Assembly: GCA_049672545.1 (NCBI GenBank)
Contig: JBATWJ010000176.1
Location: 1-20,698 of the forward strand
Length of the DNA: 20,698 nt
DNA from: Burkholderiaceae bacterium
Lineage (GTDB): Bacteria > Pseudomonadota > Gammaproteobacteria > Burkholderiales > Burkholderiaceae_D
Direction of reading: 5' to 3'
In this document: one piece after another, positions 345-10,788 of the stretch
How the letters are laid out: each line of letters opens with the position of its first letter
Numbering within the stretch: position 1 is the first letter of the stretch
Notes under the pieces: model-generated
Told to the model about the DNA's origin: nothing
Seen by the model: the letters and a program-made list of their open reading frames with translations, nothing else
Database searches by the model: none
Position numbers and translations under genes: made by a program

Positions 345-911
345 TCATCGGCCGACCTCAAAGCGGCGCGCGTAGTACCGAGCTTCGCGCCCGAAGATTG
401 TCGGGAACCGCTGCTCGATCATCTCGATCACCTTTTTGTTGATGCGCCGGGTGTTGAACATCTGCGCGACGTCGATGGTCTGCACCGGCCGGATCGGCAG
501 CCGCTTCTTCCCTTCCCGCACGAACACGGTACGACCCTTGTTGCCGATGAAAGCGCTGCGGATCAGCTTGCGGCCGCCCTGCTTGCTGATCCTCACCGTG
601 ACGCCGGCATTGGTCTGGCGCGCGGCAAAGTGGATCAGGTTCAGGCTACGGCCGCGCTTGGTGGGCGACTCCAGCGCGGCTTCGACGTTGTAGCGGCCAT
701 TCTTGAAGCTGGCGCGAATGATGCGCAGGCTGTCGTTGACGGTTTTCACTGGCAGCACGAACTGCGAGCGGATTTCGCGGCTCATTGCGGTGCGCGCCTG
801 CTCCATGGTCCGGTTCATGGCGCGCGGCACAGCCAGGTCGGTCACTTCGCGCCGCAGATCGTTGATCTGGCGCTGGACGTCCGGGAAGTTGGTGCTGATG
901 CCTAGCTTCAT
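345..911 (-). CDS. Tail-completion-like protein, lambda gpZ (Minor_tail_Z) family
   Basis: Track ORF is 345..959. I start it at ATG 911-909 (MKLGISTNF), which has GGAG 7 nt upstream and an ATGA overlap with the upstream gene's stop at 908-910. The pattern DLAVPRAMNRT...RSAFIGNKGRTVFVREGKKRLPIRPVQTIDV parallels lambda gpZ (AVPGAAAMAINRV...PGAFIQQLKNGRWHVMQRVAGKNRYPIDVVK). Confidence 0.6.
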   Translation of the reverse strand: MKLGISTNFPDVQRQINDLRREVTDLAVPRAMNRTMEQARTAMSREIRSQFVLPVKTVNDSLRIIRASFKNGRYNVEAALESPTKRGRSLNLIHFAARQTNAGVTVRISKQGGRKLIRSAFIGNKGRTVFVREGKKRLPIRPVQTIDVAQMFNTRRINKKVIEMIEQRFPTIFGREARYYARRFEVGR

Positions 912-1204
912 TTCGATCTCCACAACTCGGCCACTGCAGCCCGGCCGCCACGCTTCCATGCCTCTCGTTCGGCCTGCACCTCTTGCCTGATCCGATCCTC
1001 TTCAGCCTGCCGGACCACCTCTTCCTCCGGCGGCACCAGCCGGATGCCGATCACGTGCCCGTTCTCGCTGGCGAAGAACGTCGGCTCGCCGCGCATGCTC
1101 TTGCGAATCTGCGCGTCGATCGCGTCGGCGCCGAAGGCTTCACGCAGCGAATCGATCCACGCGGCCGTCTCGGGCATTACAGCCCGCATCCCTTTTTTCG
1201 ACAT
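908..1204 (-). CDS. Hypothetical 98-aa protein
   Basis: This is the C-terminal part of track ORF 908..1519. Start is ATG 1204-1202 (MSKKGMRAVMPETAAW...) with GGAGG upstream. The N-terminal extension in the track is a read-through of the iteron array and is rejected. No family recognised. Confidence 0.6.
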   Translation of the reverse strand: MSKKGMRAVMPETAAWIDSLREAFGADAIDAQIRKSMRGEPTFFASENGHVIGIRLVPPEEEVVRQAEEDRIRQEVQAEREAWKRGGRAAVAELWRSK

Positions 1205-1515: not shown

Positions 1516-4143
1516 TCATGCGAGCCCCTTCAATCCGGACAGATCACGGAAGCGGTCACACTGCCTGCTGAGTGATTCTTCTGGCTTCGTCTCGTCATCC
1601 CATGGAACGATAAACACCGTGCGCTGCTTTTTCGGTTTGCTGCCGAGCGTTACCTCGCGCCGAAATTTCGGCACACGCTGCGCGATCAACTCCGAGAACT
1701 TCGTTATCGACAGCGCCCGGAACCCGTGGCGCTGGCAATACTTCGTGTAGACCATGTGCAGGTCTTCCGACACGCAGCAGCAGTACGGCGCATCCAGTTC
1801 GCCTTGAGACCACGCGGTATAGAACACCTCCCATTCGGGCAGGCCGAAGTTGATGACGCGCTGTTTCGATTCGGTCATCACCGGCCAGGCGTAGGGATCG
1901 AAGTCCCCGGTCGGATATTCCAGCAGGAAGGCATAGAACGCCTCCACCAGGCCATCGCCAAGCGCCGCCTTGATCTGTTCCAGTAGCTGCGGATCGAGCG
2001 GCTGGCGCACATCCACCACCAGCATGCGGCGGTCGTCTTTCTCCAGCGGTAGCGCCTGGAACTCGTTCGACAGCATCACCGCGTTCATGTGGTTCGCCTC
2101 GACGCGGTCGTCCTTGAACTTCTGGCTGATCTGCGTATCGCGGCCGGTGATCATGTGCTTCACCAGGCCGAACCCGGCATACTTGTCCTGCCGCGACAGG
2201 ATTTCCTCGAACAGCACGAACAGCTTTTGCGAGCGCCAGACCGTGTAGTTGCTTTCCAGCTGATTCTGCCCGCCGGTGGCGCCGTGAACGCCATAGATCG
2301 GCTTGACGATCCCCTCGAAGAACAGCGATTTCCCGGTGCCCTGCTTCTCACCGAAGAACAGCAGCGCGGTCTGCATCTTCGCGCCCGGATGTTGGAGCGG
2401 ATACGCCAGCCAGCACAACACCCACTCGAACACTTCCTTGCCGTTCGGCTCCGAAGAACACAAGCTCCACAGCAGGTTCAGCGCCAGCTCCGCCTTCACC
2501 TCGTCGCGCCGTGGCGTCAACGGGAAGCCTTCAAACATGTTGATATGCGTGGCCGGGTCTACGCGTTGCGTCGGATCGAAAACCAGCTTGTCGTAGTCGT
2601 ATTCCCGATGCAGCGGATGACTCAGCCAGCGCGCTGCCAGATCGCCGCCGCGCGCCAGCGCCAGCGCGTCGTAGTGGATCGTGATGCGTTTCTCGAAATC
2701 CCATACCAGCTTCGTTCCATACAGCATCGCGTACCGATCCAGCATGCCGGCCAGCGCCTCGTCCCCCGCCCCCCCGGCATCGGTGGCGACGCCGCGCGAC
2801 AGCTTCGGTAGCGCGCGCGGGCTGATCGTGCGGCGGTCAGCGTGCGCGTCCCAAAAGCGGGCCGACTCCTTGCCGACCATCGCGAGGAAGGCCGGCCGCT
2901 TCATCCGCAGCTTGTTGAGCGAATCCCAAACGTCCGTCGTGCCCTGGATCAAAGCGCAATGCGCCAGCGCCCATTCCAGCGACACGTACCCCATAACCAC
3001 CGGCGCCACACCCGCATCAGGGGGCGCGGGGGATGCTGTGCCGGCGGCGTCATCAATCGACGGTGCATCGACCCAGGGCGGCAGCTGCGCAACCGAGCCT
3101 GCATCAGAGGGCGCGGGAGATTCCACAATGGCCGCCGCGTCAGCTGCCGGCGAGGCCATCAGCTGCGCGCGCACGGCATCCAGCGACTCATGCACGTGCA
3201 GATCGTTGAAGTCGGTCAACTGCGGCAGCGAATCGTCCTTTTTCGTCGCGCGCCGCGGCACCGAAAACACCGGCAGCAGCACCACCGCATTACCGACCGC
3301 GGCAGCGGCTTCCTGCGCCTTCGCCAGCCCCTTGCCGCCGGTCAGATAGTCATCGTCCGCGCAGAAGCGGAACGGGCTGCTCGGATACAGTGCGCGGACG
3401 ATGCGCGCCACCGCCGGCAGCTGGCCGGCATCGAACGCGACGAACACCACCCGGCCACCGGCCGCGCGCACCGACAGCCCGGTGGCATAGCCCTCCACGA
3501 AATCGATGGGCTCGCCATCCGCCGGCGCCGGACCGAGCCGGCAGGCCGCGCCGGACTTGTCCATGCCGGCGCTGTAGCGCTTCTTGCCATCGGCGGCGAT
3601 CAGCTGCTTTCCGACCAGCCGCGCCGGCTCCTCGTCGTAGCGCAACATCGGGATCAGAATCGAGCCGTCCGGCTGGTAGCGGCAGTTTTCGCCAACCACC
3701 TGTTTTCGCACCAGATACGCCGACTCACCGCCACGCGCCGCCCGCCGCCATTGCTCCTGCGCGCGGTTCGCCGCTGCCCGGGCGCGACGCTCCCGCTCGG
3801 CAGACTCTTCAGCCTCGCGTTTCTCACGTTCACGCTGGCGCGCCGCCAATTCCGCCGGCGACGGCAACTCGCCCGGCTTGTCGAAGCGGAAGCCGCGCGG
3901 CTTCGCCAGCGCAAACAGCGTACCGATCCCGACCTTGCCGCCTGCCTTGAACGACTTCCAGACGGCGACCGCGTCATCCGCGTTGTAACTGGCGCCGCGT
4001 TCGCTCCACTCCATCCAGGCTCCGCGGGCATCGTCGCCGAACTCGGCCTTCAGCCCCATCCCGACCTTGATCCATACGTCCCGGTCGTCCGGCGCCACGA
4101 AAGCGAGCGCCTGCCGCGCCTCCTCCAACGTCGCCTGCCTCAT
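1516..4143 (-). CDS. Phage/plasmid primase-helicase, P4 alpha-like (PriCT-2 + Toprim + SF3 helicase)
   Basis: 875 aa. N-terminal PriCT-2-like motif (WIKVGMGLKAEFGD..WMEWSERGASYN..WKSF..GIGTLFALAK). Central Toprim-like segment (VEGYATGLSV..VFVAFDAGQL..FCADDD). C-terminal helicase has Walker A FFGEKQGTGKSLF and a Walker B-like LFVLFEE. The long opposite-strand ORFs here are shadows. Confidence 0.9.
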   Translation of the reverse strand: MRQATLEEARQALAFVAPDDRDVWIKVGMGLKAEFGDDARGAWMEWSERGASYNADDAVAVWKSFKAGGKVGIGTLFALAKPRGFRFDKPGELPSPAELAARQREREKREAEESAERERRARAAANRAQEQWRRAARGGESAYLVRKQVVGENCRYQPDGSILIPMLRYDEEPARLVGKQLIAADGKKRYSAGMDKSGAACRLGPAPADGEPIDFVEGYATGLSVRAAGGRVVFVAFDAGQLPAVARIVRALYPSSPFRFCADDDYLTGGKGLAKAQEAAAAVGNAVVLLPVFSVPRRATKKDDSLPQLTDFNDLHVHESLDAVRAQLMASPAADAAAIVESPAPSDAGSVAQLPPWVDAPSIDDAAGTASPAPPDAGVAPVVMGYVSLEWALAHCALIQGTTDVWDSLNKLRMKRPAFLAMVGKESARFWDAHADRRTISPRALPKLSRGVATDAGGAGDEALAGMLDRYAMLYGTKLVWDFEKRITIHYDALALARGGDLAARWLSHPLHREYDYDKLVFDPTQRVDPATHINMFEGFPLTPRRDEVKAELALNLLWSLCSSEPNGKEVFEWVLCWLAYPLQHPGAKMQTALLFFGEKQGTGKSLFFEGIVKPIYGVHGATGGQNQLESNYTVWRSQKLFVLFEEILSRQDKYAGFGLVKHMITGRDTQISQKFKDDRVEANHMNAVMLSNEFQALPLEKDDRRMLVVDVRQPLDPQLLEQIKAALGDGLVEAFYAFLLEYPTGDFDPYAWPVMTESKQRVINFGLPEWEVFYTAWSQGELDAPYCCCVSEDLHMVYTKYCQRHGFRALSITKFSELIAQRVPKFRREVTLGSKPKKQRTVFIVPWDDETKPEESLSRQCDRFRDLSGLKGLA

Positions 4144-4319
4144 GCGTCATAAGCTCCATGCCAGTACGGCACCCGCTGCCCACCCATCAGCGATGGCGTC
4201 ATGCGGTAGTCGAAAGCGCCGGGACGCGCCGGCATCGCCGCGTAGAAGCGGCGCAGGTCCAGCTCCGCAGGAGGAATCGATGGCGGCGGCGAAGCCGGCT
4301 TTTTCTTCGAGCGGGTCAT
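4140..4319 (-). CDS. Hypothetical 59-aa protein, translationally coupled on both sides
   Basis: MTRSKKKPASPPPSIPPAELDLRRFYAAMPARPGAFDYRMTPSLMGGQRVPYWHGAYDA. Its ATG (4319-4317) overlaps the CII-like stop (ATGA), and its stop (4142-4140) overlaps the primase ATG 4143-4141 (ATGA). It is the only believable part of track ORF 4140..4886. Confidence 0.45.
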   Translation of the reverse strand: MTRSKKKPASPPPSIPPAELDLRRFYAAMPARPGAFDYRMTPSLMGGQRVPYWHGAYDA

Positions 4320-4801
4320 GCCGATTCGCCCGTACCCATCACGCGCGCGCGCAATTCGCACAGCGCCGCCATCGCCTCCTGCATTTCCTTCTCCAGCGCA
4401 TCCAGCACCGCCGGCGGCGGGCGATGGCCGCCGATCGCCTGCGGCACCGCCGTCATCACGTCGCCGAATTCCTTGACCGCGCGCAGCATCGATTGCGCCA
4501 GCGATTCGTCCGACAGATGCGACACGTCCGGCATTTCGAACGCGATCAGGCCGTGGCGCCAGTTCTTCGCGATCAGCGCGCGGCGCGCGTCCGGAACCTT
4601 GGCCTCTTGGCTGTATTCGATGATCAGCGAATCCTCTTCGTCGCTGATGTGATGCGTCGTGATGCTCGGCGCCAGCTTGTTGCGCAGCACGTTGACCGAC
4701 ATCCCCATACGGCGCGCCAGCATCTCGATACCACCGGGATAGGCTCGCGCCAGGTTGTAGCGGGCATCGTGCTGATTCATTTCGGTGTAACGCAGGGTCA
4801 C
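4316..4801 (-). CDS. Phage regulatory protein, coliphage 186 CII-like (CP76 family)
   Basis: 161 aa. GTG start at 4801 has GAGGAG 6 nt upstream. LARRMGMSVNVLRNKLAPSITTHHISDEEDSLIIEYSQE aligns by eye with 186 CII LAERAGMNVQTLRNKLNPEQPHQFTPPELWLLTDLTED. The overlapping 248-aa frame is Arg/Gly/Ala-rich shadow. Confidence 0.7.
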   Translation of the reverse strand: MTLRYTEMNQHDARYNLARAYPGGIEMLARRMGMSVNVLRNKLAPSITTHHISDEEDSLIIEYSQEAKVPDARRALIAKNWRHGLIAFEMPDVSHLSDESLAQSMLRAVKEFGDVMTAVPQAIGGHRPPPAVLDALEKEMQEAMAALCELRARVMGTGESA

Positions 4802-4828
4802 GGCGATCTCCTCGATTTATTACCGATG

Positions 4829-4847
4829 CGCAAGATGTTGTCTTGCG
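4829..4847. repeat. Perfect 7-bp inverted repeat CGCAAGA-tgttg-TCTTGCG in a divergent intergenic region
   Basis: Read directly from the sequence. It lies between the CII-like start (4801, minus) and the 73-aa ORF start (4937, plus). No U-tract on either strand, so a protein-binding site is more likely than a terminator. Function unknown. Confidence 0.3.
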
Positions 4848-4936
4848 AATACTCTTGCTTTTCATGCAAATAGGCGGGGGTTCCAAGGTGATACATTGCA
4901 GATTCCACTCAACAACTTTTCAGCGAAGGAACCCCC

Positions 4937-5158
4937 ATGAAACTGAAAACCATTACCTTGGGCGAGCTCAAGAGCAAACTGCAGTGGGTACTGGCGCTTC
5001 CCGACGACACGGAAATCACGTTTGGCGGCGGCGACTTGAGTTTTTTCACTGCGAAGACCTCGCTCTACGATGCGGCCGACCAACCCAAGATCGTGCAGCT
5101 CCGATTCAACGAGATCTACAAAGTCGTCATCGACCCGGATTCGGATTCCGCCGCATAA
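4937..5158 (+). CDS. Hypothetical 73-aa protein, oriented against the surrounding leftward operon
   Basis: ATG is preceded by AAGGAA. G/C-rich third codon positions in this frame. MKLKTITLGELKSKLQWVLALPDDTEITFGGGDLSFFTAK... No family recognised. Confidence 0.55.
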   Translation: MKLKTITLGELKSKLQWVLALPDDTEITFGGGDLSFFTAKTSLYDAADQPKIVQLRFNEIYKVVIDPDSDSAA

Positions 5159-5406
5159 GCCCGTTCGGCTTGTCCGCGTCGCCGCAGGATTTCCTGCAGC
5201 GGCAGCCGGCGTGCCCATCCATCCAGCATGGTCCCGAGCGATCCGATCGGCCGCGGGAAATACGATTCCATCGGCGCTCTGTCCGGGACGATGGCGGCCG
5301 ACGGGTGGAATACCGACCAGCTGTAGGCCCCCTTTTCTATCTTGATCACCACCGTGCAGCCTTCGCGTGGGTACTCGTCGGTGCGGTAGATCGCATCAAT
5401 GCTCAT
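5116..5406 (-). CDS. Hypothetical 96-aa protein
   Basis: Track ORF is 5116..5424. I start it at ATG 5406-5404 (MSIDAIYRTDEYPREGC...), with AAGAGG 6 nt upstream. Good GC3. Its 3' end overlaps the convergent 73-aa ORF by 43 nt. Confidence 0.55.
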   Translation of the reverse strand: MSIDAIYRTDEYPREGCTVVIKIEKGAYSWSVFHPSAAIVPDRAPMESYFPRPIGSLGTMLDGWARRLPLQEILRRRGQAERAYAAESESGSMTTL

Positions 5407-5474
5407 GGGCAACCTCTTTGACAAAAATCAATGATGAAAAATTGGGCAAAAAAAGAGAGGCACTCCGGCGCGGA

Positions 5475-5699
5475 TCATTTACGCGCTCCACGCAGGTATG
5501 CCCAGTACTCCGCCATATCCGGACGGAGCTCTTCGCAGGTCACGGCGGAGTTGGTGGCCTGCTCGATCTGGACGCAGCGAGACAGTGGAATCTTGCGCAC
5601 ACCGCGCGCCCATTGGCTGATCAGCGCCGACGGGACGGATAGCACCTTTGCTAGCGCCGCTTGGGCGCCGCTTGGCTTTACGTAGTCGAGTAGTTGCAT
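5475..5699 (-). CDS. Cro / YdaS-like HTH regulator (74 aa)
   Basis: MQLLDYVKPSGAQAALAKVLSVPSALISQWARGVRKIPLSRCVQIEQATNSAVTCEELRPD matches the Cro/YdaS-type pattern (..lgvs.qaVSqW..g.r.iP..r...IE.aT.G.Vt.eeLRPD). It is divergent from the CI-like gene across an operator-containing gap. The longer track start (5786) would cover all the operators and is rejected. Confidence 0.75.
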   Translation of the reverse strand: MQLLDYVKPSGAQAALAKVLSVPSALISQWARGVRKIPLSRCVQIEQATNSAVTCEELRPDMAEYWAYLRGARK

Positions 5700-5706
5700 G
5701 CGCTCA

Positions 5707-5776
5707 ATTATTAGCGATACGCTAAAAAAGAGCAATAGCGTAACGCGAATTCCCAATTTTAGCGTTTTGCTATTGA
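5707..5776. promoter_or_regulatory. OR-like switch region: three operators TAGCG-N3-CGCTA plus divergent promoters
   Basis: O1 is TTAGCGATACGCTAA at 5711-5725, a perfect palindrome. O2 is TAGCGTAACGCGA at 5736-5748. O3 is TAGCGTTTTGCTA at 5760-5772. Their centres are 24 bp apart. Leftward promoter on the minus strand: TTGCTC (5735-5730), 17 nt, AATAAT (5712-5707), overlapped by O1. Weak rightward promoter: -10 TATTGA at 5771-5776, overlapped by O3, with a poor -35 abutting O2. Confidence 0.7.
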
Positions 5777-5784
5777 ATGGCGGC

Positions 5785-6522
5785 ATGTTCCTGACAGTCG
5801 AAGATGTTCGCCGCAGACGCCTTGCTCAACTGGTTGCCAAGTTCGGGGGAGTTAGCGCTCTTGCGTCCAAGATCGAAAAAAGCCCTGCTCAAGTGAGTCA
5901 ATGGCTGAATGCGTCGCCCGATTCCCGCACCGGAAAGCCCAGAGGAATGCGACCTGGCACGTGTCGTCAAATCGAAGAGATATGCGGCGAGCCGCCAGGA
6001 TGGATGGATCGGCCCGACGAAGATGTTGGAGCTGCCGCGGTCATGCAAAACGAACGCGGCGGCCTTTACGATATGAACGTGCGCGCCGCGACAATCGGCG
6101 CGCGCACCATTCCCGTAATTTCAGCTGTGCAAGCAGGGAACCTGCAAGAGATCGCCGACCCATACCCACCGGGCGCCGGCTTCGCGGTCGAATTTATCGA
6201 CGATCAAAGCGGGTATTCGCGCTGGGCCTTCGCACTGGAAATCGACGGGCTTTCAATGCTGCCAGAGTTCCACCCCGGCGACCGCATCATCGTCGACCCG
6301 GAGGTAGCGCCGGCCCCGGGAGATTTCGTGGTGGCCCGCAACACGCACGAGGAAGCGACGTTTAAAAAATATCGACCGCGCGGGATGGATCAGAATGGCA
6401 ACATGATTTTCGAACTCGTCCCGCTGAACCCTGACTACCCGACTATGCGCAGCGACGTGGAGCACCTGGAGATTATTGGGGTCATGGTGGAACACCGGAA
6501 AAAACGGCGACCGAGGCGCTAA
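5785..6522 (+). CDS. CI-like repressor, HTH + S24 (LexA-type) autopeptidase domain
   Basis: Track ORF is 5698..6522. I start it at ATG 5785 (MFLTVEDVRRRRLAQLV...) so that the operators stay non-coding. The N-terminal HTH (SALASKIEKSPAQVSQWLN) resembles the phage CI repressor domain. The C-terminal part carries the S24 signatures GLSMLPEF (catalytic Ser) and ATFKKY (Lys). Confidence 0.85.
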   Translation: MFLTVEDVRRRRLAQLVAKFGGVSALASKIEKSPAQVSQWLNASPDSRTGKPRGMRPGTCRQIEEICGEPPGWMDRPDEDVGAAAVMQNERGGLYDMNVRAATIGARTIPVISAVQAGNLQEIADPYPPGAGFAVEFIDDQSGYSRWAFALEIDGLSMLPEFHPGDRIIVDPEVAPAPGDFVVARNTHEEATFKKYRPRGMDQNGNMIFELVPLNPDYPTMRSDVEHLEIIGVMVEHRKKRRPRR

Positions 6523-6554
6523 CCTATGCAAAGCCACATACCTGGGGAGGAATC

Positions 6555-7271
6555 ATGAAACAGATGCTCTTGCTTGCAATCGTCACAACACTCCTTATCG
6601 GATGTAGCGACCCCCGTGCGACCATGCTTTCCACCGCAGACGCCGATAAAGAAAAAATGCAGACGGCTATGCAGAAAATAACCGAAGAGGAGCGCACTCT
6701 GGTAGCTGGCTACATGATGCGTACCATGTTGGCGAACGCCTTTGCCGGCAAGACCGACACCCCTCTCGGCGTAACTATTGGTGATGCGATCAAGAAGCAG
6801 AGGGAATGGCTGTCGGCCGAAAAAAAGCGAGATGCCGAGGAAGCCGCGCTCAAGGCCAAGCTGGCGGCCGAAGAAGAGGCGTTCCAGCAACAAGTAAACG
6901 GTGCCGTAGCAGTCACGGTGCTCGAAAAAACGCTGCTACCAGAAAATTTCGATCGCCGCCGCTACTCCGCGGTGCAGGTGATCAAGCTAGGGTTTGAAAA
7001 CAAGAGCGAAAAGGACATCGCTGGCATTTCCGGCGAAGTGGCCTTTTACGACATCTTTGACAAGGAAGTCGGCAGCATCATTTTCTCTTACGACGACGGC
7101 ATCAAGGCAGGCTCTACAGCGAGTTGGACTGGTGAGCGTAAGTTCAACGAATTCTTACGCGAGCATAAGGCGCTGGCCAACTTGGAGGAAGGGAAATACA
7201 CGACCCGCTTCAAGCCAGATACGATCGTTTTTTCCGACGGAACCAAGCTAAAAGCCACGCGCAAGGATTAA
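6555..7271 (+). CDS. Prophage lipoprotein (238 aa), candidate lysogenic-conversion / exclusion factor
   Basis: GGGGAGG RBS. Signal peptide with lipobox MKQMLLLAIVTTLLIG|CSD. A charged coiled segment (EKKRDAEEAALKAKLAAEEEAFQQQ) is followed by a beta-rich C-terminal domain. It lies 32 nt downstream of cI on the same strand with no visible terminator between them. Visibly lower G+C than its neighbours. Confidence 0.8.
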   Translation: MKQMLLLAIVTTLLIGCSDPRATMLSTADADKEKMQTAMQKITEEERTLVAGYMMRTMLANAFAGKTDTPLGVTIGDAIKKQREWLSAEKKRDAEEAALKAKLAAEEEAFQQQVNGAVAVTVLEKTLLPENFDRRRYSAVQVIKLGFENKSEKDIAGISGEVAFYDIFDKEVGSIIFSYDDGIKAGSTASWTGERKFNEFLREHKALANLEEGKYTTRFKPDTIVFSDGTKLKATRKD

Positions 7272-7307
7272 CCCCTTCCCAACCCGCATCCCGGTAGCTA
7301 TAACCAA

Positions 7308-7511
7308 CTACTTGAACAGCTTCGTTAGCAGCGCCCAGAGACTTATTGAGGTACGGGAGTAGACCCTGTTGTAGGCGGCGCGCTTCGGACTGGTCAACCA
7401 CCCCCATCCGCGCGGCGCCTTGAGGCCGAGTTTGTGACGCACGAAGCGCTTCGGCGACGTGCGCGCGGCGATCATCTTTTTCAACGATGGTTTCCGGACG
7501 CCAATTTTCAT
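7308..7511 (-). CDS. Small highly basic protein (67 aa)
   Basis: GGAGACCACC precedes the ATG. MKIGVRKPSLKKMIAARTSPKRFVRHKLGLKAPRGWGWLTSPKRAAYNRVYSRTSISLWALLTKLFK. It starts 11 nt after the upstream ORF's stop, so the two form a two-gene leftward unit. No family name recalled. Confidence 0.55.
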   Translation of the reverse strand: MKIGVRKPSLKKMIAARTSPKRFVRHKLGLKAPRGWGWLTSPKRAAYNRVYSRTSISLWALLTKLFK

Positions 7512-7522
7512 GGTGGTCTCCG

Positions 7523-7738
7523 CTACCGCCCACCGACATAGCGGCCACCCTTGCCGCTGCTGCCACGACCACCGACGCGCTTGCTTCCCTTGCGGCCCTT
7601 GACTTGCGGCGCCGGCACGGCGCTATCGGCACTGAAGAAAACTTGGCCGGGAACCCGCTTCAGCACGACGTCCGCTGGCGCAGCAGTGGCCGCTGCGCAG
7701 GCCATCGAAAACACTCCAACCGCGATCAATAGCTTCAT
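7523..7738 (-). CDS. Small secreted Gly/Arg/Lys-rich protein (71 aa)
   Basis: Sec-type signal MKLLIAVGVFSMACAAATA|APAD. The C-terminus is KGRKGSKRVGGRGSSGKGGRYVGGR. GGGGG lies upstream of the ATG, and GC3 is good in this frame. The overlapping track ORFs (7487..7732 +, 7551..7775 +, 7210..7632 -) are judged to be shadows. Confidence 0.55.
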   Translation of the reverse strand: MKLLIAVGVFSMACAAATAAPADVVLKRVPGQVFFSADSAVPAPQVKGRKGSKRVGGRGSSGKGGRYVGGR

Positions 7739-7810
7739 TTACTCGCCCCCCGTGATTGGCATCAGCACAATTTGATGCAGCGTTTCAACTATTGCACAAA
7801 CAAAATTAAA

Positions 7811-7862
7811 TTGAAGTAGCGTTACGCTATTTTATCCTTGCACTAAATTTAGCGTTACGCTA
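7811..7862. promoter_or_regulatory. Distal (OL-like) operator pair with a putative rightward sigma70 promoter
   Basis: Two identical perfect palindromes TAGCGTTACGCTA at 7817-7829 and 7850-7862, centres 33 bp apart. Their half-sites match the three operators at 5711-5772. TTGAAG (7811-7816), 16 nt, TATCCT (7833-7838) reads rightward with operator A in its spacer and operator B just downstream. A leftward promoter cannot be excluded. Confidence 0.6.
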
Positions 7863-7866
7863 TTCT

Positions 7867-7895
7867 GCCTCCGTTTCCACCCAGAAACCGGAGGC
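7867..7895. other. Strong stem-loop without adjacent U-tract
   Basis: GCCTCCGTTTC-caccca-GAAACCGGAGGC, about 11 bp of stem with one bulged G. It lies between the distal operators and the 3' end of the SieB-like gene. Neither strand has a T-run immediately after the stem, so a canonical intrinsic terminator is doubtful. Confidence 0.4.
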
Positions 7896-7950
7896 CACCT
7901 TGCAGCATCCCCGCTTTTTTTCAACCAAGACAACACCCCACGGCAGCGCG

Positions 7951-8499
7951 TCAGTAGAGGCTTATGTGCCGGTCGGTTCGTGCGATATCCGTACTGCCGT
8001 CGAGCAGGTCCGGATATTCGTTGAGGTACTGCCAGGCGAAATCGCTGATGTTGTGCGCAAACCCCTCGATGATGCTGCCCTGCGCGGCGGCACGGTAAAT
8101 GATCCGCGCGGCTACCAAACCCTGCACGACGCCATCGTCGATACGCAGTGTATTGCTGCGCGTCTCCTGGCCTATGTAGAACCGGAGTATCTGCTTTTCG
8201 TCTTCAGTCAGAGCGTGCAGGCGCTCCGTCATACGCTGCTGGAACTTCCGCTTTCGCCTCCAGGTGTCGACCAGCGCACCGGCACGGATACATACGCCCA
8301 CCAGCAGCAGCGCGATCGAACCCAGCAACGCCAACCCCATCACCGAGCGATTGTCCTTTGCAAATTGGGCAACGCCGAGGTGCTGCAGCAGTTGCTCGTC
8401 GGCATACAACAGGACCCCCGCCACCACGCCGAACGCCACGAAATAACGTGGCGCCAGCTTCAAGAGCTCCAGCAGCGCCTTGACGATCTCCGCAGTCAT
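7951..8499 (-). CDS. Superinfection exclusion protein B (SieB)-like membrane protein
   Basis: 182 aa. Two N-terminal hydrophobic helices (YFVAFGVVAGVLLY; VMGLALLGSIALLLVGVCI) are followed by a basic patch RRKRKFQQ. Then comes LHALTEDEKQILRFYIGQETRSNTLRIDDGVVQGLVAARIIY, which matches the SieB family pattern (Lt..Ek.iLr.f......t..l..dd.vv.gL....Ii). The codon-aligned plus-strand ORF 7900..8514 is Gln/His/Arg-rich shadow. Confidence 0.75.
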   Translation of the reverse strand: MTAEIVKALLELLKLAPRYFVAFGVVAGVLLYADEQLLQHLGVAQFAKDNRSVMGLALLGSIALLLVGVCIRAGALVDTWRRKRKFQQRMTERLHALTEDEKQILRFYIGQETRSNTLRIDDGVVQGLVAARIIYRAAAQGSIIEGFAHNISDFAWQYLNEYPDLLDGSTDIARTDRHISLY

Positions 8500-8543
8500 T
8501 TCTTTCCCCGTTGAAAAAATTTCATTCTGCCACGGAGGCCGCC

Positions 8544-8876
8544 ATGCAACACAGCATCACCATCCAGATCGACACCGATCAGCTGCAGAACGTCACTGAC
8601 ACTCATCTCGCGACCCTCTGGCACGTCGCCCAAGCCAACCCTGCGCCGCATACCACTCCTGACGCAGGCGCAATAGCAGAAAAAATCGGCCGCGAGATCA
8701 TCCGTCGCTTCCTCGCCACCACCCCGCCAGAGCTGTACTTTCATCAAGGCCGCGACTACTACCATCACACGCTGGTCCAGCACGGCTATTGGCCCGGCCC
8801 CAAGCATGACAAATGGGTTTACGACCCGAGCAAGGGAGTCCAGACGTCTGCACAACCCGCCGAGGTGACCAAATGA
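8544..8876 (+). CDS. Hypothetical protein (110 aa), first gene of the rightward operon
   Basis: Start is ATG 8544 (MQHSITIQ) with GGAGG 6 nt upstream. The track start at 8511 lacks an RBS. Good GC3. Confidence 0.6.
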   Translation: MQHSITIQIDTDQLQNVTDTHLATLWHVAQANPAPHTTPDAGAIAEKIGREIIRRFLATTPPELYFHQGRDYYHHTLVQHGYWPGPKHDKWVYDPSKGVQTSAQPAEVTK

Positions 8877-9034
8877 CGGCCGCCTGGCGCGTGACGGTCA
8901 ACCGGCCCGGCAAGCCGACGCTGCGGTTCTTCGCCCTCGGCCGCAGCAGCACCGCGATCCACGCCACCGAGCTGGAGCGCTTCGGCGGCCTGTGCAGCGT
9001 CGCCGTGCTGCCGATCGAGCGGAGGCCGTCATGA
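8873..9034 (+). CDS. Hypothetical protein (53 aa)
   Basis: MTAAWRVTVNRPGKPTLRFFALGRSS... The ATG overlaps the preceding stop (ATGA at 8873-8876), and its own stop overlaps the next ATG. Confidence 0.45.
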   Translation: MTAAWRVTVNRPGKPTLRFFALGRSSTAIHATELERFGGLCSVAVLPIERRPS

Positions 9035-9519
9035 GCGCCGGTGAGTCCTACTGGATCCCCGGCAAGGTGCGCGTGCGCGCTTCGGCTCCCGACCCCCTCT
9101 GTGGCTTGCGCGGGCACGCGTATATAGCGGCCCGAGGGCTGGGAAAGCCGGCGGCGCGCCTGCCGGCCGACGACGAAGCCGAGCGCGCCGCTGCGCGGGC
9201 GAACCTGATCAAGGCGATTAACCAGCGCCCGGCCTTGCCGGGCGAAGGGAATACGAACGGGCATGCCGATGGCATGCGCGCTTGCACAGCGCCCGCCGGG
9301 ACGTATGGTGCCCCGCTCAGCCGCGAGCTGATCCAGGCGATCAAGCAGCTGCTCGCGGAGCCTGCGTCGATACGTCTGGCCCGCATGACCGGCGCGGCCG
9401 ACTTCCTGCCGATACCGCCACGGCGCTACGCCATCATCGTGCCGGCGCCGTCCGGGCATCCCGACCTGGTCGCCCAGCTGCAGGCGCAGCAGGCCATCAA
9501 CCGCGCGAGGTCGCGATGA
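9031..9519 (+). CDS. Hypothetical protein (162 aa)
   Basis: MSAGESYWIPGKVRV... ATGA overlap at 9031-9034. High GC3 in this frame. The antisense ORF 8698..9459 is rejected. Confidence 0.55.
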   Translation: MSAGESYWIPGKVRVRASAPDPLCGLRGHAYIAARGLGKPAARLPADDEAERAAARANLIKAINQRPALPGEGNTNGHADGMRACTAPAGTYGAPLSRELIQAIKQLLAEPASIRLARMTGAADFLPIPPRRYAIIVPAPSGHPDLVAQLQAQQAINRARSR

Positions 9520-9785
9520 ACAACCCCGTCCCCGCCTCGTCGCTGGCTCTGCAAAAGCTGGCCGATCGCATCGTCCCGCCGGCGCCGCGCGCGCTGCCGG
9601 ATGAAGACCGCGACAGCCCGGTCCTGCGCGTCTTCAACGCGCTGCGCAATGCCGGCTACACCATCGGCACGCCGATCCGCGCCTACCCGCCGCGCGCCCG
9701 CTATCACGCCGACTGGCATGTCCGCATCAGCCGGCCCGAGTTCGAATTCACCCTCTCTTTCCTCGTGCCCGAAGACGTTTCCTGA
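9516..9785 (+). CDS. Hypothetical protein (89 aa)
   Basis: MNNPVPASSLALQKLADRIV... ATGA overlap at 9516-9519. It is the C-terminal part of track ORF 9282..9785. Confidence 0.5.
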   Translation: MNNPVPASSLALQKLADRIVPPAPRALPDEDRDSPVLRVFNALRNAGYTIGTPIRAYPPRARYHADWHVRISRPEFEFTLSFLVPEDVS

Positions 9786-9817
9786 GCGCGCCCGCCAACC
9801 TCTTGAGCCACCACCTC

Positions 9818-10375
9818 ATGACACCCAATATCCATAACTGCATTCAGACCGTCTCCGGCCGCTACGTGAATCTGCTGGAGCCCGACCCGGAGTCGATCAC
9901 CATCACCGACATCGCCCGCGCGCTGTCGCTGATCAACCGCTTTGGCGGCCACACGCGCACGCCGTATACCGTCGCGCAGCACTCGATCCTGGTCGCCGGC
10001 ATCATGCCGCGCGAATGGCAGCTGCACGGCCTGCTGCACGACGCCGCCGAGGCCTACCTCGGCGACATGGTGCAGCCGCTGAAGCACCAGCCGGAGATGC
10101 GCCCGTTCCGCGAGCGCGAGAGCGTGATGCAGGCCGCGATCTACAAGAGCCTCGGCCTCTCGCCCTGCTCACCGGACGGCTGCCATGACGCCGTGCGCCG
10201 CGCCGACCTGACGGTGCTGGCGACCGAGCGCCGCGACCTGATGCCGCCCGACGCGCAGCCCTGGGTGATCCTGACCGGCATCGAGCCGATGCACAAGCGC
10301 ATCCGCCCGATGCGGCCGCAGGTGGCCGAGGCCGAGTTCCTGTCGCGCTTCAAAGAACTGGCGGGGCTGCAATGA
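9818..10375 (+). CDS. HD-domain phosphohydrolase (YfbR-like 5'-nucleotidase fold)
   Basis: Conserved metal-binding pattern: TVAQHS...GLLHDAAEAYLGD...ADL. I use ATG 9818 (MTPNIHN); the track begins at TTG 9803. Confidence 0.7.
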   Translation: MTPNIHNCIQTVSGRYVNLLEPDPESITITDIARALSLINRFGGHTRTPYTVAQHSILVAGIMPREWQLHGLLHDAAEAYLGDMVQPLKHQPEMRPFRERESVMQAAIYKSLGLSPCSPDGCHDAVRRADLTVLATERRDLMPPDAQPWVILTGIEPMHKRIRPMRPQVAEAEFLSRFKELAGLQ

Positions 10376-10788
10376 GCGCCGCCGTTTTGACCGCGCTGAA
10401 AGATGCGCAGAAGTGCCTCGCACGCGAGATCGCGCGGCTCGAACAGGCTGCAGGCGGCGCCACAGCTGCTGCCGGGGACTATACGCTCGTGCCGAATCGC
10501 GCCTTGAACGAGCACGTCGGCGCCGCCGTGTTCAACCTGGCCGCCCTGCGATTGAACACCGACCCGCGGCTGCTTGCCGCTCTGAAGCCGCCCGCGCCGG
10601 CCGGGTCCGAGGCTGCCGATTCGGCCGTGTCCGCCGACTGGCGCCTGCAGAGGTTCGGCGCGGAAGACTGGGTCACCACCGCCTTTTTCGTGTCGTTCGA
10701 TGAGGCCTGGGCCGCATACAGCTGGGCATGCAACGCGCGGCCGGAAGCGGAATTCCGTATTGCGTTGCGTGCGAAGGAGTCGTCATGA
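10372..10788 (+). CDS. Hypothetical protein (138 aa)
   Basis: ATGA overlap at 10372-10375. MSAAVLTALKDAQKCLAREIARLEQ... No family recognised. Confidence 0.55.
   Translation: MSAAVLTALKDAQKCLAREIARLEQAAGGATAAAGDYTLVPNRALNEHVGAAVFNLAALRLNTDPRLLAALKPPAPAGSEAADSAVSADWRLQRFGAEDWVTTAFFVSFDEAWAAYSWACNARPEAEFRIALRAKESS

Follow-up and report, generated by a model that had tools for sequence, protein, structure and literature searches.

The window analysed here is a 20.7-kb contig of a metagenome-assembled genome (MAG) of a Burkholderiaceae bacterium, and the part under study is the immunity region of a lambdoid prophage. Alongside the regulatory genes, this region carries four accessory genes, encoding a lipoprotein of 238 amino acids, two mini-proteins of 67 and 71 amino acids (hereafter p67 and p71) and a homolog of the superinfection exclusion protein SieB. 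An earlier note on this DNA had put the four forward as a candidate multi-component exclusion or defence island. The features of the region, with positions in the window, are as follows.

4316-4801, minus strand: cII (Phage_CP76, E=5e-28)
5475-5699, minus strand: cro (YdaS/P22_Cro helix-turn-helix, HTH)
5712-5772: OR, three 13-bp operators, TAGCGATACGCTA, TAGCGTAACGCGA and TAGCGTTTTGCTA, at 5712, 5736 and 5760, with 24-bp spacing, between cro and cI
5785-6522, plus strand: cI-type repressor with HTH and S24 peptidase (Peptidase_S24, E=1e-17; N-terminal Cro/YdaS-like HTH)
6555-7271, plus strand: lipoprotein, 238 aa, in the rex slot (open reading frame (ORF), lipobox, AlphaFold2 model and synteny)
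7308-7511, minus strand: p67, 67 aa, isoelectric point (pI) 12 (homologs and profile search)
7523-7738, minus strand: p71, 71 aa, Sec signal peptide and basic Gly-rich mature peptide (homologs)
7817-7829 and 7850-7862: OL, two perfect operators TAGCGTTACGCTA (motif matches)
7838-7866, plus strand: predicted pL, TTGCAC-17 nt-TATTCT (read by eye; the second OL operator lies within the spacer)
7867-7895: stable hairpin, located after OL/pL and ahead of the sieB 3' end (plus strand: -17.8 kcal/mol, z=-4.4)
7951-8499, minus strand: SieB homolog, 182 aa (PF14163, E=7e-28)
From about 8544, plus strand: early-left genes

The operator motif TAGCGTWACGCTA was matched five times in the window, with 0.1 matches expected by chance, and the start of cI was assigned to the ATG at 5785, directly past the third operator. 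The four accessory ORFs were found where the earlier note had placed them; its statement that all four sit between the two operator sets applies only to the lipoprotein, p67 and p71 genes, sieB lying outside, to the right of OL. The cI stop at 6522 and the lipoprotein ATG at 6555 are separated by a 32-nt spacer with the Shine-Dalgarno sequence GGGGAGG, and no terminator-like site was found on the plus strand between 5300 and 9000, confirming the arrangement that had been described, with the lipoprotein gene close behind the repressor on the same strand and no terminator between them. The predicted pL was missed by a consensus scan, in which no site reached at least 9 of 12 matches.

Low G+C had previously been taken to indicate moron-like acquisition of the cargo. 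The G+C content of the entire immunity region (4300-8900) is indeed lower than that of its flanks (57.8% vs 64-66%). However, base composition does not single out the cargo, because the whole region is low, the G+C content at third codon positions is 65% in both cI and the lipoprotein gene, and the p71 gene, at 65% G+C, is not low. Of the marks of a moron, a pattern of presence and absence among relatives was seen; composition is only weakly atypical, and no promoter or terminator was called in the scans. A megablast search with positions 4000-10500 against 50,697 phage records gave zero matches.

Distribution of the four genes among related loci

Around 105 loci surrounding relatives of each protein were fetched and scanned with hidden Markov models built from the four families (loci are referred to below by L numbers). 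The lipoprotein alone was identified at 42 of these loci, p67 alone at 46, SieB relatives alone at four and p71 alone at three, while p67 and p71 were found together at three loci representing two lineages. All four genes together were present only in the window and in L001, an identical sequence from another assembly. The proposal of a single multi-component island is thus unsupported, because its four genes fail to co-occur in related prophages, an outcome that the earlier note had itself counted against the idea. A PADLOC screen (PADLOC-DB 2.0) of six proteins, which the note had suggested, identified no families, and NCBIfam yielded no useful match to any protein.

Prophages with a cI 45-61% identical to that of the window, a homologous cII and usually a homologous cro (in Paraburkholderia tropica, Pandoraea terrigena, Undibacterium baiyunense and a Pseudomonadota MAG) contained none of the four genes. 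Their slot after cI was filled by a HIRAN-like protein of 128 aa or by small membrane proteins, and in this cI-related phage group the rex slot acts as a hot spot for cargo in general. The post-cI cargo included the HIRAN-like 128-aa protein in L068 (6654-7040), a protein of 145 aa with multiple transmembrane (TM) segments in L070 (6486-6923) and a 75-aa TM protein in L071 (6496-6723). In L060-63 and L064-65, genes for a VapE-primase, cII, cro, the repressor and the lipoprotein, arranged as in the window, lead directly into the early-left operon, p67, p71 and SieB being absent after the lipoprotein, and SieB relatives of 49-54% identity had none of the other three genes nearby. Judged by this comparison, both the rex slot and the region near OL serve as slots for variable cargo.

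The p71-p67 pair

Homology and sequence conservation indicate that the p67 and p71 ORFs are real genes, in agreement with their earlier description as a leftward pair encoding a secreted Gly-rich peptide and an extremely basic protein. p67 has a pI of 12.0, with 18 Lys and Arg residues and no acidic residue, and ends in an amphipathic helix. More than 1500 homologs were found at 70-87% identity, with pS values of 0.5-0.9 (synonymous sites saturated), pN of 0.08-0.23 and a pN/pS ratio of 0.10-0.38. p71 begins with MK, followed by a hydrophobic core and the cleavage motif A-T-A, and its mature part has a pI of 11.7 and contains 11 Gly among 52 residues. Its homologs (n=34) share a signal peptide and the invariant tail GSKRVGGxGxSGKGGRYVGG, joined by a linker that varies. 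A small secreted ORF of 69 aa adjoins the p71 relative in Albidiferax (L015, 674-883, plus strand); it ends in ...NPYTGKVGAKRD and looks like another family of small periplasmic proteins.

A profile search with p67 resulted in 1443 clusters at 50% identity, many of them comprising proteins of 100-821 aa with the p67 domain at the extreme N-terminus. A TM-like hydrophobic segment was identified in 56 of 77 long representatives, following the p67 domain and preceding variable C-terminal regions in the ten sequences that were read; one further long sequence carries SH3_3 as judged by a Pfam scan. Because the TM-like segment comes after the N-terminal domain, the p67 domain would constitute a conserved cytoplasmic 'head', and the 67-aa p67 is, on sequence grounds, the free-standing form of this widespread N-terminal cytoplasmic domain. 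It matched four PHROGs of unknown function and no Pfam family, and a profile search against PDB sequences found nothing. The structure model of p67 was poor (predicted local distance difference test score (pLDDT) 69, predicted template modelling score 0.29), which would fit a protein folding on a partner. Sequences named 'HIRAN' in the p67 cluster listing lacked the p67 motif and were discarded as a clustering artefact; the HIRAN gene neighbouring p67 in L028 is genuine.

Between bacterial phyla, p67 retains 44-87% identity. Among Firmicutes phages, 122 records, including Lactococcus Dub35A, Streptococcus Javan202 and Paenibacillus Diva, place p67 in the lysogeny module between the repressor and integrase genes. 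Upstream of p67 in the Firmicutes are genes for an ImmA-like protease, a Zn-ribbon membrane protein and a TM protein; a conserved SieB-p67 pair, considered on the basis of a gene of about 185 aa upstream of p67 in these phages, was rejected since none of these proteins is SieB. In proteobacteria, the neighbours of p67 encode Endonuclease_NS (L005), Mrr (L027, L057), HSDR_N (L045, L059), a secreted SNase (L030/31) and HIRAN (L028), and on a Clostridium plasmid (L104) a type I restriction-modification (R-M) operon carries an inserted p67 between its hsdS and hsdR genes. In L032 p67 separates the terminase and portal genes, and in an alphaproteobacterium from the gut it follows alaS. The nuclease and DNA-end-binding genes adjacent to p67 have unrelated folds, and the HSDR_N-p67 pair is common to an element of 51% GC and one of 39% GC.

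In the window, p71 lies 11 nt upstream of p67 and both are read leftward. The two families also meet in integrons. In the class 1 integron of Citrobacter freundii pTTHS031_GES (L103, NZ_LC589514.1), p67 is followed after 15 nt by p71 and by an attC site ending GTTAGAT; the p71 homolog (3229-3450, 73 aa) is unannotated and the p67-like ORF preceding it is annotated as a 'hypothetical protein'. The two ORFs share this single attC, with none between them, and the cassette sits between aac(6')-Ib4 and a second blaGES-5 array, with intI1 present. The same p67-p71 cassette, with the same attC, here ending GTTGGGC, occurs on an IMG/VR contig (L036) beside an IntI-like gene. Both loci thus show the features taken to mark an integron cassette: an integron integrase gene nearby and an attC with a GTTRRRY core behind the ORFs. 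No attC was found in the window. The cassette sequence was present in one PLSDB plasmid only. Downstream of the integron-like cassettes of L036 (6072-7816) there are five tandem copies of a 316-bp unit, 79-95% identical.

Integron cassettes normally represent single functional units. The shared cassette, together with the adjacency in the prophage, provides reasonable comparative evidence that p71 and p67 form a two-gene functional unit, and our best guess is that such a unit would act on both sides of the inner membrane. The pair resembles the phage-resistance integron cassettes (BRiCs) in that p67 and p71 together form a small cassette, furnished with an attC of its own, in a class 1 integron; unlike BRiCs, the pair of the window lies in a prophage, in reversed order and without attC. 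Among integron cassettes whose function is unknown, at least a third were found to confer phage resistance (Kieffer et al., bioRxiv 10.1101/2024.07.02.601719); the cassette sequence strings and the plasmid accession were not found in one supplementary file of that paper. An origin of the pair by simple gene fission was unsupported, since the p71 tail motif is absent from all long proteins with the p67 domain. Of two secreted Endonuclease_NS genes that are close relatives (L005, 4201-4956, and L014, 3770-4573; E=1e-85), one has p67 as its neighbour and the other p71, which hints that the three genes for nuclease, p67 and p71 were associated at an earlier time.

Alternatively, p71 and p67 could be unrelated small cargo genes that share insertion hot spots, with p67 working by itself, perhaps regulating nucleases and R-M enzymes or partnering with them. 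We regard this as possible, if somewhat doubtful. It would agree with the 46 p67 loci lacking p71 and the three p71 loci lacking p67, with the presence of p67 beside Mrr, HSDR_N, SNase, Endonuclease_NS or HIRAN genes or within a type I R-M operon in around ten contexts, and with its solitary occurrence after alaS; however, both genes lie in one integron cassette that has a single attC, and they are also adjacent here in the other order, amounting to two arrangements in two kinds of mobile element.

The lipoprotein family and SieB

The lipobox of the lipoprotein, L-I-G-C17 (LLIGC17), fits the pattern [LVI][ASTVI][GAS]C, and C17 and P20 are invariant across 30 homologs. The family is rare, being represented by 42 homolog clusters among 5.8 billion clusters, all of them unnamed. 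No full-length homolog was found in cultured phages. The AlphaFold2 model (pLDDT 91) consists of short helices (29-64), a 43-residue helix (75-117) and a seven-stranded immunoglobulin (Ig)-like sandwich (118-233). Fold matches were generic (ApaG, IrmA and TRAP), and Foldseek found a weak full-length likeness to the trimeric Salmonella lipoprotein SadB (PDB 4c47), likewise a lipoprotein whose coiled-coil stalk leads into a beta-sandwich. With 232 columns aligned at 12% identity, E=3e-3, a TM-score of 0.31-0.37 and an rmsd of 13 A, this is a likeness of architecture only, and SadB differs in that no autotransporter partner lies near the lipoprotein gene of the window.

The lipoprotein gene was found downstream of the repressor and on the same strand in seven independent prophage lineages (the window, L002, L019, L020, L060-63, L064-65 and L102), in support of the earlier assignment to the rex slot. 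L102 is a prophage on a Serratia IncA plasmid with the order repressor, a 328-aa gene, lipoprotein, integrase; based on its replication-endonuclease and CII layout it was read as P2-like. In other lineages the lipoprotein gene abuts MmeI-type R-M genes (L073, L091), an AAA_5 McrB-like gene (L066/67) or a HEPN gene (L083), and the gene that follows it differs in every lineage. The closest relative, at 67% identity, is that of L002 (6796-8655), where it is followed by genes for a secreted SNase and for STAS/HATPase-like and DUF4325 proteins, which may be another defence-like cargo set.

Because the gene directly follows cI on the same strand with no terminator, the lipoprotein is expected to be made in the lysogen, and the retention of this placement in seven lineages makes both lysogen expression and an exclusion-type role plausible. 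In its position, the gene resembles lambda rexA-rexB and 434 hex, which are co-transcribed with the repressor from pRM (see PMC3564112). It differs from RexA, RexB and Hex in having no sequence relationship to them (Pfam, PHROG, PADLOC), and Rex is a pair of a cytoplasmic sensor and a membrane channel whereas a single exported lipoprotein is predicted here.

Lipoproteins with a role in superinfection exclusion are known from the lysogeny modules of prophages (PMC11893012; see also PMC3952083). Like T5 Llp, phi80/N15 Cor, mEp Lpp and Streptococcus thermophilus Ltp, the protein studied here is a phage lipoprotein, with a canonical lipobox and a gene in the lysogeny module and repressor operon. 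No sequence family match to Llp, Cor, TraT or Ltp was obtained, and these proteins were absent among the best 50 fold matches in each library. Llp, Cor and Ltp are about 60-140 aa long. At 238 aa the lipoprotein is much larger, and its helical stalk and Ig-like sandwich set it apart. Taken together, it is probably an autonomous single-gene moron made in lysogens and, by analogy with Llp, Cor, mEp Lpp and Ltp, probably anti-phage; its role as a lysogen-expressed exclusion protein is plausible from the gene order.

A service to the host rather than to the prophage, with the lipoprotein acting in serum or stress resistance, adhesion or envelope maintenance like lambda Bor or plasmid TraT, appears unlikely to us. 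Morons expressed in lysogens often serve the host (see PMC3594210), the generic Ig-like sandwich is of a type seen in adhesion and scaffold proteins such as IrmA, RbmA and SadB, and some contexts of the gene are not related to phages, with EAL and YdjM genes as neighbours in L078. However, the gene lies repeatedly beside repressors and R-M, McrB-like or HEPN genes, a pattern of anti-phage cargo, and no match to the Bor, TraT or Iss families was found in Pfam or NCBIfam.

The identification of the fourth gene as sieB held up. Its product scored 97.5 bits against PF14163 (gathering cut-off 26), covering model positions 3-145 of 147, that is, 143 positions, and it contains two N-terminal hydrophobic segments (Kyte-Doolittle windows of at least 1.6 at around residues 15-33 and 53-75). 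At 182 aa it is similar in size to the P22 and lambda proteins (192 and 184 aa), which have the same two hydrophobic segments, and sieB occupies the same location as in those phages, just inside the pL operon and oriented opposite to the predicted pL transcript. In pairwise BLASTP comparisons, SieB of the window showed no significant similarity to the protein of P22 or to that of lambda, and there was no N-like gene between pL and sieB. By family and location, SieB of the window is an ordinary member in an ordinary place. SieB aborts the lytic growth of superinfecting heteroimmune phages, and self-protection by Esc and sas was described for P22 (PMC10883804); by analogy, abortive exclusion of heteroimmune phages would be expected here. 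The hairpin at 7867-7895, directly past the -10 of the predicted pL and ahead of the 3' end of sieB, is followed by no U-tract on either strand, and is a candidate nut-like site, sieB 3' end or attenuator.

Elsewhere in the window, a 73-aa ORF (4937-5158, plus strand; 54% G+C) lies between cII and cro on the strand opposite to the cII-cro operon; it is called as a gene in a Logan assembly and may be another moron. An ORF matching Minor_tail_Z (345-959, minus strand; 345-911 in the gene table of L001) is situated around 0.6 kb downstream of a primase-like gene of 875 aa (1516-4143), with one ORF between them, an unusual juxtaposition of a tail module and a replication module.

A probable set of three accessory units in one immunity region

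Based on these comparisons we consider it likely, with a probability of around 70%, that the locus is made up of three independently acquired and mobile accessory units inserted in a lambdoid immunity region, rather than of one system. Gene reality, family membership, synteny and lack of co-occurrence are established; for the expression and phenotypes of the units we infer the following. In the first unit, the lipoprotein gene would be read from the cI maintenance transcript and its product made in the lysogen, exported and lipid-anchored, with Ser at position +2 predicting the outer membrane by the Escherichia coli +2 rule; it would display the Ig-like sandwich on its long helical stalk in the periplasm and might block receptor use or DNA entry of superinfecting phages. 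The second unit, the leftward p71-p67 cassette, would supply a secreted basic Gly-rich peptide and a very basic protein at the cytoplasmic face, one part on each side of the inner membrane, and is probably a self-contained unit of defence or exclusion. In the third, sieB in its canonical place would abort heteroimmune lambdoid phages as in P22 and lambda.

Several observations weigh against this interpretation. For the lipoprotein, 11 of around 18 lineages do not have the gene behind a recognisable repressor, and structural comparison was uninformative, the best PDB matches being generic sandwiches with TM-scores of 0.25-0.31 and the best viral match, of the sandwich to a protein in BFVD (M4SRV0, E=5e-11), leading to an unnamed entry. 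The p71 and p67 families mostly occur apart, and the gene order of the pair in the window is the reverse of that in the integron cassette. With regard to transcription, no promoter was called by the consensus scan anywhere in the region, including upstream of p71-p67, and no terminator was found between sieB and p71-p67 or between the convergent lipoprotein and p67 genes; the units may therefore be transcriptionally coupled, with possible read-through from sieB into p71-p67, and pL may exert an antisense effect on sieB. Proximity in a single phage could also allow functional interplay that is invisible to comparative data.

That the lipoprotein, p71, p67 and SieB act jointly as one envelope-spanning exclusion or defence system is highly improbable, and the failure of the genes to co-occur already goes most of the way to refuting it. 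In its favour, the four genes adjoin one another within around 2 kb of the immunity region, their products have complementary predicted sites (outer membrane or periplasm, periplasm, cytoplasmic face and inner membrane), and no clear terminator interrupts the strand on which sieB, p71 and p67 all lie. Against it, the quartet exists in this sequence alone among the loci compared, each family is found many times with the other three absent, OL and pL intervene between sieB and the rest, related prophages lack the set and PADLOC identified nothing.

The preferred reading of three separate units would make the locus not a new multi-gene system but a mosaic of accessory units of familiar kind. Two of these belong to uncharacterised families, the lipoprotein and p71-p67, with unusually clean comparative signals, making them good candidates for experimental work: prophages have repeatedly put the lipoprotein gene in the repressor operon, and it is also found beside restriction genes, while the p71-p67 mini-cassette is common to a soil prophage and a clinical carbapenemase integron. 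More tentatively, and we regard the combination as doubtful, p67 and p71 may be an undescribed, very small two-part mobile module of defence or exclusion in prophages and class 1 integrons, composed of a periplasmic basic Gly-rich peptide and a cytoplasmic-face protein of pI 12, with p67 belonging to a large uncharacterised domain family (1443 clusters) that commonly forms the N-terminal 'head' of membrane proteins encoded in lysogeny modules across Proteobacteria and Firmicutes; independently of this, the family of repressor-linked lipoproteins may be a new class of envelope superinfection exclusion protein. If either family protects against phages, it would be an addition to the catalogue of single-gene and mini-gene defences and, if this were true for p71-p67, one such defence cassette would be travelling beside resistance cassettes in a clinical integron.

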